Notes under the pieces: model-generated
Databases searched by the model: none
Seen by the model: the letters and a program-made list of their open reading frames with translations, nothing else
Told to the model about the DNA's origin: nothing
Position numbers and translations under genes: made by a program
In this document: piece after piece, positions 4,675 through 11,548 of the stretch
Position numbering within the stretch: position 1 is the stretch's first letter
How the letters are laid out: each line of letters opens with the position of its first letter
From: Escherichia coli
Lineage (GTDB): Bacteria > Pseudomonadota > Gammaproteobacteria > Enterobacterales > Enterobacteriaceae
DNA: 64,000 nucleotides
Direction: 5' to 3' (one strand)
Assembly (NCBI RefSeq): GCF_003018235.1
Contig: NZ_CP027437.1

Positions 4675-5266
4675 CCAACACACTGACAGAGGGCGGCGAA
4701 AATGCTTTATGCAAATCTTGATGCAAAGGCAGCCAGACGAATTCGTAAGTTACGCTTTTACGTGGCAGATACTCAAAGCAGACTGGCATTGTAGCGACGA
4801 TTGCCACGGTGAACGCTATTGTATGGCATGTAGTACCTGAGACTTCAGCCGCCCAGTAGATATAGCATCATGAAAAAACTGAAATGCTTTCTTGCCAACA
4901 ACTCACTGAGCTAGTATGCCTCCACCGATGTAACAATTAGAGCAAGCGTCAAAGTGCGAAACTGCCCTCACGTAGCTGCAAGTTAACACCAGGAAATCCT
5001 GGTTCAAACACGACCAGCTCTATGTTAGCGGCAAGCAATCGTTGAACTAAACGCATATGCAGCCGGAGATGAAAGTTAGGAAAAAAGCAGAGGCTGATAA
5101 GAATTATGCACGTTGAGCTGGGATCGTAATACCCCACTTAAAATGTACAAGGGGAGTAGTCTAATGATGTTAAATACGAACCTTCAGTATTGTTCATTCA
5201 CCAATTTTCCCATATTCTCTCATCATTAATATTCTCTGCCGAATTTTATAGGGCTAACTCGCTGAA

Positions 5267-5470
5267 ATGAATGACAAAGCTTTAACCTTGAAAGATGTGG
5301 TGGCTTACTTAAAGTTGGCAGAAAAAACAGCGTATAGGTTGACTAGCGAAGGCAAATTGCCGGGATTTAAGGTTGAAGGCTCATGACGCTTCAAACGAGA
5401 GGATTTAGATATGTGGATTGAAGGTCAGAAGACTCAAAGCTACCCGAGTATCACAAAATCCAATCGTGGT
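5267..5470 (+). pseudogene. Excisionase/AlpA-like HTH DNA-binding protein interrupted by in-frame TGA
   Basis: Translation MNDKALTLKDVVAYLKLAEKTAYRLTSEGKLPGFKVEGS*RFKREDLDMWIEGQ; the stop at 5384-5386 sits where this family has the conserved Trp of the GSWRF motif. Confidence 0.5.
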
Positions 5471-5666
5471 TGATCAAGTGGATAAACATGAAAAGTCGGT
5501 AGCCCTCAAAGGCCACTTGCCACATGCAGTGAAGCAAGCCGTTGTGCAAGCTCTACTGAAAGAAGGTGATATCGCCCGAACGTTGCTCAAGGATCCACAA
5601 GTTATGGCAAGTTATGTTGAGCTGATTTTCGACATGATGAAGCAGAATAAAAATATGAATATCTAA
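5418..5666 (+). CDS. Small hypothetical ORF immediately upstream of the ATPase gene (non-ATG start in ORF track)
   Basis: ORF-track call only; start is TTG/GTG with no convincing SD; overlaps the 3-prime end of the HTH pseudogene. Confidence 0.2.
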   Translation: MKVRRLKATRVSQNPIVVDQVDKHEKSVALKGHLPHAVKQAVVQALLKEGDIARTLLKDPQVMASYVELIFDMMKQNKNMNI

Positions 5667-5708
5667 AAGATTTTGGGCTATCTATTACGTTTTAAAATGA
5701 GATAAATA

Positions 5709-8246
5709 ATGATAAATGACCATGAAGAACTAGAACTTGCTAAAGCTCAGGCAAAAGAAATATGGAAGATCCTTGATTATGTTCGAGGAGCATCACCTAT
5801 ATCTAATTATCGCTCATTAGCGTATTCAATCTTCTTCGTACGCTATCTTCAATCCAATACAGGTCAGCATTTTGAGGCAGAAAGGTTCGACTCTTTTAAT
5901 GTCATCGCCCAGTATTCCTACGATCTTGTAAACTATGCCGTTCAACTTGGATTGATTCATAGCGACGTATCTAAATTCTTAATTTATTATTTAGAAAACA
6001 CACTCCGTTCATTTGTCAATATTGATGAGTCTTTTGTTCGTTATGCAATTAGAGATGGTCTACTCAATAAAACCCCTGCAATAGCGTCGCTTTCTTTATC
6101 AGAACTGGATTTACTTTTTGCCGAGAATGAAGGTAAGTCAGGAGGTGAGTTTTATACCCCTAGAGACGTCAACTTATTGGTTAAAATATTAGGATTGAGT
6201 TATCAACCAAAGTCAATATGTGACCCATTTGCAGGTGCTGGAAACACAGCATTTCCTTTTGCCAATACTGGTATTGAAAAAGTTAGGATTGATACTCAAG
6301 AAATTAATAGAGATGCTTACTTTAAACTAGTAATAAGTAGAGTCATCAGGAAAATAGAAGGTCGAGACTATTTCGGCGATTCCCTATCACAACCATTATA
6401 TCAAGAAAATAAATATGATCTGATAGTTTCTTTCCCACCTTTTGGCATGAAAATTCCTAAAGCCACTCGAAATAATATTTACTATAAAACAAGTAATAAG
6501 TGGCTGGATATTACTGAAATCTTGCCAGAAAGTAGAAGTGATTGGTTTATAACATTATCAATGCTTCCAGCCCTTTCTGAGGGGGGTAAGATACTAGTAG
6601 GTATGTCACTTGGGGCTTTGACAAGAGCAGGCTCTGAGGCAAAGGTTCGTGAGTATTTAGTCTCTCGCGGAATTATCGAACAAGTAATTCTTTTACCTAA
6701 AAATATTTATTACTCTACGGCTATCTCAACTGTACTTCTTGTCCTCAACTCAGGAACAAGTAACATAAATAACAGAAGTATTAAATTTGTAGATGCTTCA
6801 CTGTTTTACGAGCCTGCCCGTGGTCGAAACACCCTCACAACAAAAAATATAAATGAGATCGTAGAGGCTTGTCATAAAGATGGCCGATTTAGTATTAGTT
6901 CATCTCATACCCAAATAGCAAACAGAGACTTTAATTTAGATCCGTCTCTTTATGTACGTAAAGATCTCAAAATCAGTGAGGTTTCTTTAAAAAATTTTAG
7001 AGGATACTCTGACTTTAAAGTTTCGATACATCCTTCTTTAAATGTATTGGTTGGTGAGAACGGCGTCGGGAAAACTTCGATATTAGAAGCATTAGCATGT
7101 GGCCTTGGTCCTTTCCTTACTGCTATGCCTGATGCTAAAGGAAAACTGATAAAAAAATCAGATATCCATATAAGTTCAAAAGGAATCGCAAATTATGCTC
7201 GAATATCGATTGAAACAACATCAAGTTTAAGTTGGGATCTTGTGGCAAAGGGGGTTGATGTTTCCGAGCCCCCTAAGATAGGAACATCAGCATTAACTAG
7301 CTACGCTACTCATCTTGTAGATAGTCAGTCTGAATATCCACTCATTGCTTATTATGGGACTAACCGTGCTCTTACTTCTACCAGTTCTAAAGTTGCAATA
7401 AATCCATTCGAGAAAGAAAATCGTGGGGAAGGTTATGACTTTGCTTTAGATGCTAAAGTTAACTACGGCATCTTAAAGAACTGGTTTTCAAAAATAGAGG
7501 TTGATGAGCTTCGAAAACGTGATGAACTAAAAGACCATAAATTCATTCATCCGGCTAAGAGACTTGTTTCAGAGGCTGTTTACCAGATTGTTGATCGAGC
7601 TACATGCTTGGAGTTCGACAAAAATAGTAACGATGTTATGGTTCATTGGAAAAATGAGCAGGGAGAGTGCGTAAAGCTTACATTGGAACAACTAAGTGAA
7701 GGGTATAGAAATATGGTATCCCTGACCATTGACCTAGTGAGGCGTGCTTATTTACTTAATCCTACCAAACCGAAACCGCTAACAGTTAATGGGATCGTTT
7801 TAATTGATGAAATTGAACTTCACTTGCACCCTAGATGGCAGCAAAAGATTTTAAATGATCTTACTAAGCTGTTTAAGAATATTCAGTTTATTGTCACGAC
7901 ACATAGTCCTCAAGTCTTAACAACAATCAAAGCCGATTGTATCCGTATTGTTTCCGTCAATGCTAACGAAGCAAAATTAGTGACAGGAACTACTACTTAC
8001 GGTTCTGAAAGCTCAAGAATGTTGGAAGATGTTTTAGGTGGTAACAATCGCGCCCAACATCTTGATATTGTTAAAAAACTAAACCGTTATACAGAGTTAG
8101 TAGAGGCCGACAAATGGGATACCGATGAGGCATTAGAACTCAAAAAAGAGTTATATAAATGGGGTGGTCAGACAGAAGACGAGCTTCAAAAATTAGAAAC
8201 TGATATTCGAATTCGCGAGTTCGAGCGTGGCAATGAAAAAGATTAA
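5709..8246 (+). CDS. Fusion protein: N-terminal gamma-class N6-adenine methyltransferase-like domain plus C-terminal ABC-type ATPase (Septu PtuA-like)
   Basis: MTase-like motifs in order X-I-IV: EFYTPRDV (about aa 147), DPFAGAGN (about aa 172), SFPPFG (about aa 240). ATPase motifs: Walker A GENGVGKTS (about aa 449), Walker B VLIDEIELHLHP (about aa 695), TTHSP (about aa 730). AT-rich coding sequence. Confidence 0.75.
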   Translation: MINDHEELELAKAQAKEIWKILDYVRGASPISNYRSLAYSIFFVRYLQSNTGQHFEAERFDSFNVIAQYSYDLVNYAVQLGLIHSDVSKFLIYYLENTLRSFVNIDESFVRYAIRDGLLNKTPAIASLSLSELDLLFAENEGKSGGEFYTPRDVNLLVKILGLSYQPKSICDPFAGAGNTAFPFANTGIEKVRIDTQEINRDAYFKLVISRVIRKIEGRDYFGDSLSQPLYQENKYDLIVSFPPFGMKIPKATRNNIYYKTSNKWLDITEILPESRSDWFITLSMLPALSEGGKILVGMSLGALTRAGSEAKVREYLVSRGIIEQVILLPKNIYYSTAISTVLLVLNSGTSNINNRSIKFVDASLFYEPARGRNTLTTKNINEIVEACHKDGRFSISSSHTQIANRDFNLDPSLYVRKDLKISEVSLKNFRGYSDFKVSIHPSLNVLVGENGVGKTSILEALACGLGPFLTAMPDAKGKLIKKSDIHISSKGIANYARISIETTSSLSWDLVAKGVDVSEPPKIGTSALTSYATHLVDSQSEYPLIAYYGTNRALTSTSSKVAINPFEKENRGEGYDFALDAKVNYGILKNWFSKIEVDELRKRDELKDHKFIHPAKRLVSEAVYQIVDRATCLEFDKNSNDVMVHWKNEQGECVKLTLEQLSEGYRNMVSLTIDLVRRAYLLNPTKPKPLTVNGIVLIDEIELHLHPRWQQKILNDLTKLFKNIQFIVTTHSPQVLTTIKADCIRIVSVNANEAKLVTGTTTYGSESSRMLEDVLGGNNRAQHLDIVKKLNRYTELVEADKWDTDEALELKKELYKWGGQTEDELQKLETDIRIREFERGNEKD

Positions 8247-9021
8247 TAAGCTAGATGAGCCAAATCGGCTTGGTGTGTTCAAGGCTACTCATCCTAATGC
8301 TTTGTGGGAGAGGGATAAAAACTCAATTGAAGAGGCTTTCCGTTGTTGCATTGCCAGATATCAAGAAACTCTACAACAATTACGTACGGACCAAGGTAAT
8401 TTATGTGCATATTGTGAACAGGATTTAATGTCTGGAACTAATGGGGCATTAGATGACTGCCGTATTGAGCATTTTCATCCGAAATCTAAACGTGAACAGG
8501 GAGAACCTAATTGGGCTTTGGAATGGAGCAATTTGTTAGTTGTTTGCTGTGGCGGAAATCAAAGTAAAGTTGTTAATCCTGGGCAAAGATTTGATGCTGA
8601 TCCCAAAAATTACTCTTGCGATGTACCAAAGAGTGACAAAATTTTAGATACCATTATATTAAATCCACTTAATTTACCTGAATTAAATATCTGGAAGTTT
8701 CATCGTTCTTCGGGGCAAATTTCCGTAAATGAAGATTCCTGTTTAGAATTTGGTATAAGTGTTGAAATGGCACACCAAACAATTAAAGAATTGAATTTAA
8801 ATTCCCCTCGATTAATTAGATTTCGAAAGGCTATTCTAAATAATCTCAACATTTTAATAACAGAAAGGCTGAAGAAGGGACAAACGGTAGAGCAAGCTGT
8901 TAGATTTATTGCCATATCACTCTTTAGAAAAAATGGAGCAGGTGATTGGCCCTCTTTTTTTAGTGCAACACGATATTATTTAGGTCAGCAGGCTGAGCTT
9001 GTTTTAGCCCAACCTATTTAA
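8227..9021 (+). CDS. HNH nuclease (Septu PtuB-like)
   Basis: Motif CAYCEQD...DDCRIEHFHPKS...WSNLLVVCCGGN; start (GTG 8227 or ATG 8233) overlaps the stop of the upstream ATPase gene, indicating an operon. Confidence 0.7.
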   Translation: MAMKKINKLDEPNRLGVFKATHPNALWERDKNSIEEAFRCCIARYQETLQQLRTDQGNLCAYCEQDLMSGTNGALDDCRIEHFHPKSKREQGEPNWALEWSNLLVVCCGGNQSKVVNPGQRFDADPKNYSCDVPKSDKILDTIILNPLNLPELNIWKFHRSSGQISVNEDSCLEFGISVEMAHQTIKELNLNSPRLIRFRKAILNNLNILITERLKKGQTVEQAVRFIAISLFRKNGAGDWPSFFSATRYYLGQQAELVLAQPI

Positions 9022-9040
9022 CATACTTTCAACTAGTTAG

Positions 9041-9063
9041 AGAGGCTGCTTTTGGCAGCCTCT
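9041..9063. terminator. Hairpin between convergent operons (agaggctgcttttggcagcctct)
   Basis: Perfect stem agaggctgc/gcagcctct with T-rich loop, located between the stop at 9021 (+) and the stop at 9082 (-). Confidence 0.4.
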
Positions 9064-9081
9064 TGCAGAGTGCAGAATCGA

Positions 9082-10515
9082 CTACAGGGGCGATGCTAGC
9101 TCAGAGAACCAAGCGTGAACTGATCTGTAAAATGTGCTGATTGACCAAAACTCACTGCATGCAGCAACTAACAGAATGACCACTAAGAGGATCACTACAG
9201 TAGAAGTCATTCTTTCCACACGGCAGTATGATCCCATCGCATCTTTTACAGGTTGTCTAGCCAGTTCCTGATAATCCAGCTCATCCAGAAATCCGTATAA
9301 TTTAGTTCTCCAGGTGGTTCTAACTCTTTCAAGTAATGAAATTGTTTGCCTATTAATATAGACAGACATTCCATAGGAAATAACTATATAAACCGCGATA
9401 GCACAAAAAACCAAAGCGTAAATATTTTGCAAACCAACTGATTTTACTGCATCCAGACTGTAGCGAATAACCAAGACACTAATTACAAGAGCCATATCTT
9501 TCCATAAGGAAGAGGACAAATCTCGGGATTGCTGAATGATCTTTTGTGTATCTTCAGCCAGCGTTTTCCGCAAATCACCCAAGGATTTCATAGTATCTTT
9601 ACCACCAGTCCTGATATGGGCCTTATACATTAACCGTGCAGACTCCAAAGCTGATGAGAGTCGAAGCATCACTCCCTCACAAAAGTTCAGGTCTGAAGGC
9701 CACTCTCTAGCCAGCTCGCTGGACAAAAACGTATGTTTCAGCTCAGTTTCATTCCCCTCTAGAAAAATCCACTTTGCCGCTTCCTGGATAATATCAAAAG
9801 CAGGTAACGCTGCCGTCTCATCGCCGAATGCTATTTTTCTGGGAGGCTTTCCCGCAAGCCCCACCATCATTTCGTCAGCAAAAAAAAGTTCATTTGCAAA
9901 ACATTTCAGCAACTCTCGGCATCCTAGCAATTTCCATATCTTGATTGCTTCATCAGTCTTCTCACTACAAGTTTCAAGTATCCAAGGGGCAATGGCATCT
10001 GGAGGAAGAAAAGTTGTTGAATAACATTTGATGATACTTTTTGTTACTGAAGGCTTAGTGATAGCTGTTGCATCACCAGCACTCACCGGCTGTATCTCCT
10101 TCCATGGATGCACATACCAACTTATTGTCTGAAAGCCTTCAGTAATAAACAGCCCATAAATATGTTTGTACCGACAGAGTTTGCTATCTTGAAGTAAAAA
10201 AGTGCGCCATCCTTCTAAGGTAAAAAGCCTCAGTATCCCCGGAATTTCATTATAAGTGATGGTAATGTAGTGCTTCTGCCCTGGGACCCCCTCTCTCGGA
10301 TGAATAACATCTCTGCTCTCATCGATAAAAACGATCTTGAGATCTTCCGCATGTACATCCACTATTTCTCCCCATAAATCAAGGGATTCACTATCCATTG
10401 TGGCGGAAATAAAAAGCTTATGGATAGACACCTGCTGGTCCTCTGTGATCACAAGGTCAGATAAATGTCGTGAGTGGCATATAGCCTTACCGATTTTTTC
10501 CAATATCGATATCAT
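9082..10515 (-). CDS. Hypothetical protein with C-terminal transmembrane helices (477 aa)
   Basis: Long ORF; C-terminal hydrophobic segments (IYALVFCAIAVYIVISYGMSVYI and STVVILLVVILLVAACSEFWSI); 29-nt overlap with the upstream gene; no recognisable catalytic motif. Confidence 0.55.
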   Translation of the reverse strand: MISILEKIGKAICHSRHLSDLVITEDQQVSIHKLFISATMDSESLDLWGEIVDVHAEDLKIVFIDESRDVIHPREGVPGQKHYITITYNEIPGILRLFTLEGWRTFLLQDSKLCRYKHIYGLFITEGFQTISWYVHPWKEIQPVSAGDATAITKPSVTKSIIKCYSTTFLPPDAIAPWILETCSEKTDEAIKIWKLLGCRELLKCFANELFFADEMMVGLAGKPPRKIAFGDETAALPAFDIIQEAAKWIFLEGNETELKHTFLSSELAREWPSDLNFCEGVMLRLSSALESARLMYKAHIRTGGKDTMKSLGDLRKTLAEDTQKIIQQSRDLSSSLWKDMALVISVLVIRYSLDAVKSVGLQNIYALVFCAIAVYIVISYGMSVYINRQTISLLERVRTTWRTKLYGFLDELDYQELARQPVKDAMGSYCRVERMTSTVVILLVVILLVAACSEFWSISTFYRSVHAWFSELASPL

Positions 10516-11548
10516 CTGTTACCAATCCTGCAGTCACAATTACAATTCGTTTTCGCCCGTCTTCCATATTTTCTACTTCTGGTGCATTGTCTTCATCGTA
10601 GATAATGATTACATCTTCCAATGTTTCCAGTTTTCTCTTCCGGGGCTTCTGAATGTTATCGGGAATGATGCGGAAAGATTCACCTGAAATTCCTAAATCC
10701 TTTATTTTACGAAAAAAATACTTAACCAGAGGGTGTTCTTCCTCCAAAGGACCAAAAATCTGGGTCAACAATGGCAGTGCTTCATCAGTATTAAAATCCT
10801 GTTCGCCATGGCGTAAAGTTTCATAAATTTTGTTTACTCCGCTGCGCTTGATCTCTTCAGGTAGTAAGTTTCGATGCTTTTTATATACATCTTTTAATAC
10901 AGTAACTAGCTTATCGCTGAGCTGAGTTGGGTCATTGACGCGCTTAACCTGTAGAAATCGTTCAAAATAGACAGAGATGTTAGTACGTTTGCTGCGATCT
11001 CGTACGACAACTAATCCGCCCGGCAAATCTTCATTCAGCCGTACCAGTGCGATTTTCTGCATGGCTTCGGCTTTTTTAACGAAACTTTCGCGAAAGCGTT
11101 CGAGTTTAGGTACCTGAAACTCATCTCCTTCAACATCCAGCACATAACGGACTACATCTTCATTGTCATACTTAATCAACGCATACAGTTTCTCATCGTT
11201 GAGTGTATGAAGTTCAAAAAGGAAAAAAACGCCCATACTGGCATTCTTGGTATGGTGGTGAGACTGAAAATCGCTTGCCAATAAGGAGGATTGCTCAGTA
11301 AAGCAGCCGATATCGGTGTCTGCATGTTCCCTGATGATCCTCAGGATTCGCTCTGTATTTGACAACTCCTTAAAATGAAACATATTGCCACTAACTGCAG
11401 ATTTGATACGTTCCAGAAAGAAATCAACATGCTCCGGAGGGGAAATTTCGCTGAGTAAAACAGGGACTTCCAACTCACCGCCAACCACATGAAAAATCAT
11501 CCTTTTTATTGATAATGCATTGATTTCTTCATCCGTTAAAAAACTCAT
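10487..11548 (-). CDS. Hypothetical protein (353 aa), weak resemblance to NdpA/YejK-type nucleoid-associated proteins
   Basis: Long ORF first in a two-gene operon; size and scattered sequence patterns recall YejK, but this is an unverified impression. Confidence 0.5.
   Translation of the reverse strand: MSFLTDEEINALSIKRMIFHVVGGELEVPVLLSEISPPEHVDFFLERIKSAVSGNMFHFKELSNTERILRIIREHADTDIGCFTEQSSLLASDFQSHHHTKNASMGVFFLFELHTLNDEKLYALIKYDNEDVVRYVLDVEGDEFQVPKLERFRESFVKKAEAMQKIALVRLNEDLPGGLVVVRDRSKRTNISVYFERFLQVKRVNDPTQLSDKLVTVLKDVYKKHRNLLPEEIKRSGVNKIYETLRHGEQDFNTDEALPLLTQIFGPLEEEHPLVKYFFRKIKDLGISGESFRIIPDNIQKPRKRKLETLEDVIIIYDEDNAPEVENMEDGRKRIVIVTAGLVTDDIDIGKNR

Follow-up and report, generated by a model that had tools for sequence, protein, structure and literature searches.

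A small open frame beside a Septu-like gene pair in an Escherichia coli island is most probably the 3' remnant of a deleted hsdR gene

The DNA analysed here, referred to as the window, is a 64,000-nt stretch of the Escherichia coli contig NZ_CP027437.1. The locus of interest is part of an island bounded by a P4-type integrase by tRNA-Leu/ahr and by the nanM-nanS side. Among 5,426 complete E. coli genomes, only two have this stretch, at 99.5–99.7% identity. It contains an open reading frame of 82 codons at positions 5418–5666 on the plus strand, for which the ORF listing gives a TTG start. The translation (LKVRRLKATRVSQNPIVVDQVDKHEKSVALKGHLPHAVKQAVVQALLKEGDIARTLLKDPQVMASYVELIFDMMKQNKNMNI, followed by the stop) begins with LKVRRLKATRVSQNPIVV and ends in MMKQNKNMNI; the TAA stop occupies 5664–5666 and the next gene starts with an ATG at 5709, leaving a gap of 42 nt. 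An earlier note, made from the letters of the window, had pointed out an open frame of about 80 codons ending 42 nt before an ATPase gene, without an ATG start and a good ribosome-binding site and overlapping a helix-turn-helix remnant, and all of this agrees with what we find. In-frame starts are limited to TTG 5418, GTG 5466, GTG 5478 and later ones. None of the TTG or GTG candidates has a GGAG/GAGG-type Shine-Dalgarno sequence 5–12 nt upstream, there is no in-frame ATG ahead of codon 62, and the sole AGAGGA lies 14 nt before TTG 5418. The features of the locus, as we read them, are the following.

5267–5467, plus strand: HTH_17 (AlpA/excisionase-type) pseudogene (Pfam HTH_17, E=1e-15)
5418–5441, plus strand: first 8 codons of the open frame, which are the terminal part of the HTH gene read in another frame; not homologous to hsdR
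5441–5442: deletion junction, a TA common to both parents (412–413 and 6834–6835 of the intact island L017)
5442–5666, plus strand: 3'-terminal hsdR remnant, codons 1004–1077 and stop in the native frame
5478–5666, plus strand: RefSeq/PGAP 'hypothetical protein' WP_244578218.1, 62 aa, GTG start (NZ_CP049204.1 and NZ_CP028192.1), wholly within the hsdR remnant
5667–5708, plus strand: native spacer between hsdR and the next gene (10-sequence alignment)
5709–8246, plus strand: 845-aa fusion protein of an HsdM-like domain (N6_Mtase, residues 137–418) and a PtuA ATPase (residues 420–843)
8233–9021, plus strand: PtuB HNH endonuclease (PADLOC PtuB, 1.9e-100; PGAP start at 8233, GTG 8227 in the ORF listing)

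The upstream HTH_17 frame starts at 5267, meets an in-frame TGA at 5384–5386 and runs on to a second TGA at 5465–5467, so that the open frame overlaps it. At 5384–5386 the window and the closely related loci L001 and L016 have TGA, L002 (E. coli CFSAN018748) has TAA and L017 has TGG; in L017 the HTH_17 gene is intact, encodes 58 aa and ends in a TAG stop. The change of TGG to TGA relative to this intact copy bears out the earlier description of the gene as a remnant, and the different nonsense codons at one position show that the regulator gene has decayed stepwise. PGAP keeps the 39-aa HTH_17 stub as a 'helix-turn-helix transcriptional regulator'.

The gene directly downstream, which the earlier note called the ATPase gene, does have a PtuA ATPase part; it is in fact an 845-aa fusion with an HsdM-like domain. 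It matches Pfam N6_Mtase (4e-42), AAA_15, AAA_21 and AAA_23 as well as PADLOC PtuA (4.7e-106), and its NCBIfam matches to PtuA (5.8e-98) and hsdM (2.1e-35) are both under the curated cut-offs. The PtuB product scores 83.6 bits against NCBIfam TIGR02646 (cut-off 52) and is named 'retron system putative HNH endonuclease' by PGAP. The order expected for Septu, in which a PtuB HNH nuclease comes after a PtuA-type ABC/AAA_15 ATPase, is thus present. In the fusion domain, the motifs lie at residues ~172 and ~242 of the 845-aa protein. Motif I is present as DPFAGAGNT, whereas motif IV reads FPPF, is without the catalytic Asn and so departs from the (N/D/S)PP(F/Y/W) of active N6-adenine methyltransferases. 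This is the case in 9/9 homologues (the window, L005, L007, L008, L010, L011, L012, L015 and L017; LPPF in L008), while the cognate HsdM proteins have NPPF or NPPY. The HsdM-like fusion domain is probably not an active adenine methyltransferase, and it may serve as a sensor or adaptor. The fusion family comprises ~68 protein clusters from Enterobacterales, Vibrionales, Shewanella, Aeromonas and Undibacterium. Directly before ATG 5709, the block AATGAGATAA is kept in all homologues of the 10-sequence alignment and is likely the ribosome-binding region of the fusion gene.

What, then, is the open frame? Its length alone is within chance, as shuffles of the local composition yield ~0.2 ORFs of at least 82 codons per kb, and no Pfam or NCBIfam family scores above threshold, the only match being sub-threshold prephenate-dehydrogenase noise. 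These two observations are what speaks for a chance open frame in a non-coding spacer that never coded for anything. Against it, residues 9–82 align with residues 1004–1077 of the L017 HsdR protein with 67/74 identities (91%, E=1e-43, BLASTP), and the DNA alignment is collinear up to a stop codon that has the same position in both. L017 HsdR is a 1077-aa protein with HSDR_N (66–221) and SWI2_SNF2/ResIII plus T1R_D3-like (297–750) domains. A word-indexed protein search with the open frame returned only fragments of 52–122 aa with 52–98% identity and mutually unrelated N-termini, one of them labelled "type I restriction enzyme R subunit" at its source. The longest fragment (P0005) was used for an exhaustive HMMER search, which gave 100 proteins, including HsdR C-termini with E-values of 1e-30 to 1e-8. 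The full-length proteins of 1031–1082 aa from this search match only in their last ~100 residues (positions 917–1073), and they can be recognised as HsdR because HSDR_N, SWI2_SNF2/ResIII and T1R_D3-like domains are present. These matches refute a chance origin, to which we assign a negligible probability. The earlier suggestion of an open frame in AT-rich spacer, one of two between which the note did not choose, therefore holds in that the frame is not a gene; it fails on the cause, since the segment is the 3' end of hsdR and has a GC content of 42.6%, vs. 37% for the two downstream genes.

Like HsdR, the open frame has the last 74 residues, collinearly, and the position of the stop. The differences are much larger: the frame lacks the HSDR_N nuclease domain (PD-(D/E)xK), the SF2 motor (ResIII / SWI2_SNF2 / T1R_D3-like) with both its RecA-like domains and the greater part of the helical C-terminal domain, and hsdM and hsdS are missing at the window locus. 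In the ancestral arrangement, represented by L017, L012, L015 and L013, both hsdM and hsdS are linked to hsdR. As judged from sequence, the frame is a fragment of this well-known family and belongs to it by descent only. Pfam searches with the longer tail fragments found nothing, and there appears to be no solved homologue, as a PDB sequence search with P0005 gave only a weak DEAD-box match (E=0.018). In PADLOC the frame matches the PDC-S15 profile at its last 70 of 380 positions (E=4e-6), and we treat this match as a common HsdR-type C-terminal sequence and not as a sign of membership.

Scanning metagenome contigs with a DNA pattern for the conserved core yielded seven loci. Four of these (L012, L013, L015 and L017) have a full-length hsdR with the pattern at its 3' end; the hsdR of L018, which also contains the pattern, is cut by the contig end. 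The gene order in L017 is HTH_17 (58 aa) - hsdM (669 aa) - hsdS (440 aa) - hsdR (1077 aa) - MTase-like::PtuA - PtuB. By blastn, window 5179–5442 corresponds to L017 150–413, upstream of hsdM (85%), and window 5441–9414 to L017 6834–10810 (91.6%). Similarly, window 5441–13239 matches L012 5883–13684 at 93.4%, reaching the integrase/tRNA side of the island, and hsdR is intact in L012. Relative to L017, the window is without 6,422 bp and has a 2-bp TA microhomology at the junction. Aligned base by base, the left parent reads ...CAAAGC-TA-GATGAC, the right parent ...ACCAT-TA-CCCGAG and the window ...CAAAGC-TA-CCCGAG. The missing segment extends from the final base of the HTH stop to codon 1004 in hsdR. 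Since this destroys the native TAG stop (TAG to TAC), the HTH_17 frame continues to the TGA at 5465–5467. L016 has a junction and a TGA identical to those of the window.

These data suggest the following history. An ancestral tRNA-Leu island would have contained co-oriented HTH_17 - hsdM - hsdS - hsdR - (HsdM-like::PtuA) - PtuB genes, from which one illegitimate-recombination event at the 2-bp TA would have removed 6,422 bp. This would have eliminated hsdM, hsdS and 93% of hsdR, leaving the last 74 hsdR codons and the stop. Upstream, the frame is open for 8 further, HTH-derived codons back to the TTG, and the hsdR remnant has no start signal and is decaying. That the frame is open follows from its being the one in which the hsdR 3' end was natively read. 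We consider it very probable (roughly 93%) that 5418–5666 is a chimeric open frame made by the deletion, i.e. hsdR debris and not a gene. The remnant is presumably not translated, and it would persist only because it is young and adjoins a retained Septu-like module. A 45-residue core of the frame is still identical to functional HsdR, so the deletion is likely recent on the scale of pseudogene decay.

In Moritella sp. JT01 (L010, 319–9257) the fusion gene comes immediately after an intact hsdM-hsdS-hsdR. The tail of its HsdR was considered as a homologue of the open frame and rejected (BLASTP E>3), and this locus supports the gene order and not the homology.

A rival reading is that the tail now serves as a domesticated small protein, the possible small third component of the earlier note, for example as a docking peptide on the HsdM-like domain. 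The idea has some appeal. The C-terminal region of HsdR has been implicated in binding the HsdS-HsdM complex (PMC2878639), and the protein encoded downstream has an HsdM-like domain. In addition, L005, L008, Klebsiella and the window group all have a frame that stays open as far as the native stop, and PGAP calls a CDS. The frame is also intact in three near-identical copies of the window (L001, L002 and L016), which says little because they are ~99% identical to it. The state of the tail in related loci argues against a protein. In Silvania (L007) it has a 1-nt deletion and a GAG to TAG change, in Pantoea sp. A4 (L011) 4-nt and 1-nt deletions leave no ORF, and the tails of Pectobacterium (L023) and Yersinia (L022) are frameshifted, as is that of L014 by a 1-nt deletion. 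Further, the 5' ends differ in L005, L008 and Klebsiella (L020): the tail reaches back to HsdR residue 973 in L005, and in L008 homology starts only at window 5522. The N-termini thus differ in every lineage, and there is no usable ATG or Shine-Dalgarno sequence. Conservation of the frame across homologous islands, proposed in the earlier note as a check, is therefore not observed, with a stop in L007, frameshifts in L011, L014, L022 and L023 and other cuts in L005 and L008; this is the outcome that the note had named as refuting a gene. In the loci with a broken tail the cassette genes are intact, and the fusion gene and ptuB have dN/dS values of 0.06–0.11 in the four loci L005, L007, L008 and L011.

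The second check proposed there, synonymous vs. non-synonymous variation, points in the same direction, with the caveat of small counts. For the tail, dN/dS is 0.45–0.50 vs. L007 and L008, compared to 0.11 for the adjacent gene, and 0.17 vs. L005. We also scored deviations at peer-identical sites in a leave-one-out test with five intact hsdR genes that are ~16% apart in DNA. Each intact gene deviates at 0–4 of ~61–65 peer-identical residues. At the sites that are invariant in all five, which are residues fixed in functional HsdR, there are 4 replacements in the window and 6 in L016, and the two differences between the window and L016 tails are both non-synonymous. Replacements, gaps or stops at invariant sites number 12 in L007, 27 for L008/L014 and 31 in L011, and only 2 in the Dickeya locus L003. 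The counts are small and favour relaxed constraint on the truncated tail. The low dN/dS vs. L005 and the identical core are expected if most of the divergence accrued while hsdR was intact, before independent truncations. The breakage of the frame largely refutes the small-protein reading, to which we assign a very low probability. The alignments establish the homology to HsdR, the junction, the ancestral gene order and the breakage of the frame in relatives.

A different possibility, compatible with the debris reading, is that the tail is coding debris of which the DNA is kept as a cis element (a promoter, 5' leader or ribosome-loading region) for the downstream cassette. At least five different 5' breakpoints are seen, all in the last 10% of hsdR (residues 973–1032 of 1077), and every enterobacterial cassette examined keeps the last 46–105 codons (at least 145 bp). 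The decayed tails of Pantoea, Pectobacterium and Yersinia are frameshifted and not deleted. Moreover, the spacer between hsdR and the next gene is 42–45 nt (45 nt in L017) and has no terminator, and the two genes overlap (ATGA) in Moritella, so that the cassette has no obvious upstream region of its own. On the other hand, there is no sigma-70 consensus promoter in 5418–5708, where a TTGACA-like hexamer at 5629–5634 is without a matching -10, and the 5442–5720 region gives no Rfam match and no unusual RNA fold (z=0.16). The Pantoea tail also evolves at a near-neutral rate, with a nucleotide identity of 0.66 compared to 0.63 at third codon positions of the neighbouring gene. Finally, the sample is small and was partly ascertained via the tail itself. 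Retention as a cis element is thus an unlikely explanation, if one that deserves mention. Overall, that the tail is more than debris, either as a cis element through which the cassette could stand alone or, less likely, as an HsdM-docking peptide, seems to us quite improbable.

For annotation, the hsdR-debris reading has a direct consequence. WP_244578218.1, from E. coli PapM-32-1 and CFSAN018748, uses the same frame and has 100% identical DNA in the remnant; the database treats it as protein-coding, whereas the evidence presented here suggests an hsdR pseudogene fragment, and the call ought to be changed to hsdR pseudogene. The value of the analysis is mainly one of annotation hygiene, as the RefSeq "hypothetical protein" and the possible third component would both be the same hsdR pseudogene fragment. 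A similar case may exist in Klebsiella pneumoniae (L020, 7518–7958), where 73 unrelated codons (MLNSLEIYQALNELGYRLESGKF...) precede the hsdR tail in the same frame and the whole is called as a 146-aa gene, which has no family match. We found no partner for these 73 upstream codons in the other loci or in NCBIfam, and the 146-aa gene is likely an annotation artefact. Dickeya dadantii (L003/L004, 7669–8270) has an independent internal deletion in the same R-M family, which in L003 fuses hsdM at residue 125 to hsdR at residue 985. Here rhuM follows in place of the PtuA cassette, and the annotation treats the pieces as small proteins in their own right.

Both the age and the origin of the locus are clarified by this reconstruction. 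The E. coli leuX island once contained a type I R-M system and a Septu-like pair in one cluster, of which the R-M genes were lost in one deletion while the Septu-like pair has stayed intact under purifying selection. Such a natural "R-M-less" derivative argues that HsdM-like::PtuA/PtuB can be maintained without a type I partner, which is of use for work on this module. The surrounding operon is a more interesting object than the open frame itself. Compared to Septu and the PtuA-PtuB pair of the retron Ec78 type, the two downstream genes of the window match PtuA and PtuB. They differ in that PtuA has an additional N-terminal HsdM-like domain of ~420 aa, with FPPF and not NPPF, in that the pair sits at the distal end of a co-oriented type I R-M cluster in the intact islands, and in that the NCBIfam PtuA and PtuB equivalog scores at the window are below the cut-offs. 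To our knowledge, described Septu systems have no small third protein. In literature searches on PtuA/PtuB in connection with HsdR or methyltransferases, neither this fusion nor a Septu linked to hsdR was described.

The pair follows HsdR proteins of three subfamilies, namely the L017 type, that of Moritella (~25% identity) and that of Klebsiella L019–L021 (42% identity), which suggests that this Septu variant has become associated with type I R-M recurrently, and possibly for functional reasons. In the PrrC/EcoprrI system, a defence effector is embedded in a type I hsd locus. The likeness is that of a second defence module integrated in a type I R-M operon; the differences are that here an ATPase and an HNH nuclease follow hsdR, compared to an anticodon nuclease in PrrC, that any functional coupling is putative, and that nothing of a working R-M system is left in the E. 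coli island.

The hsdR tail, fusion gene, ptuB and an inverted repeat appear as a discrete 3.65-kb cassette, extending from ~5441 to ~9090 in the window, from 7733 to 11379 in L020 and from 8077 to 11731 in L007. The repeat is GC-rich (GAGAGGCTGC...GCAGCCTCT) and lies just past the ptuB stop, where the tools used define no terminator. The cassette with its tail is found in unrelated contexts, including a Yersinia ICE, the Pectobacterium chromosome and, in Klebsiella, a position following another R-M system. A common left breakpoint with differing upstream partners is seen in three loci: the Klebsiella and Silvania cassettes have their left end at the TA of the window. Their right end lies 3–10 nt inside the 3' end of a convergent 477-aa gene. 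In the window this gene is at 9082–10515 on the minus strand, and its product has no Pfam or PADLOC match. It is accompanied by a gene for a 353-aa NA37 (nucleoid-associated, NdpA-like) protein at 10487–11548, also on the minus strand. Both genes, located between ptuB and the integrase, are kept in L012, L001 and L002; they may represent additional cargo of the island or form a defence pair.
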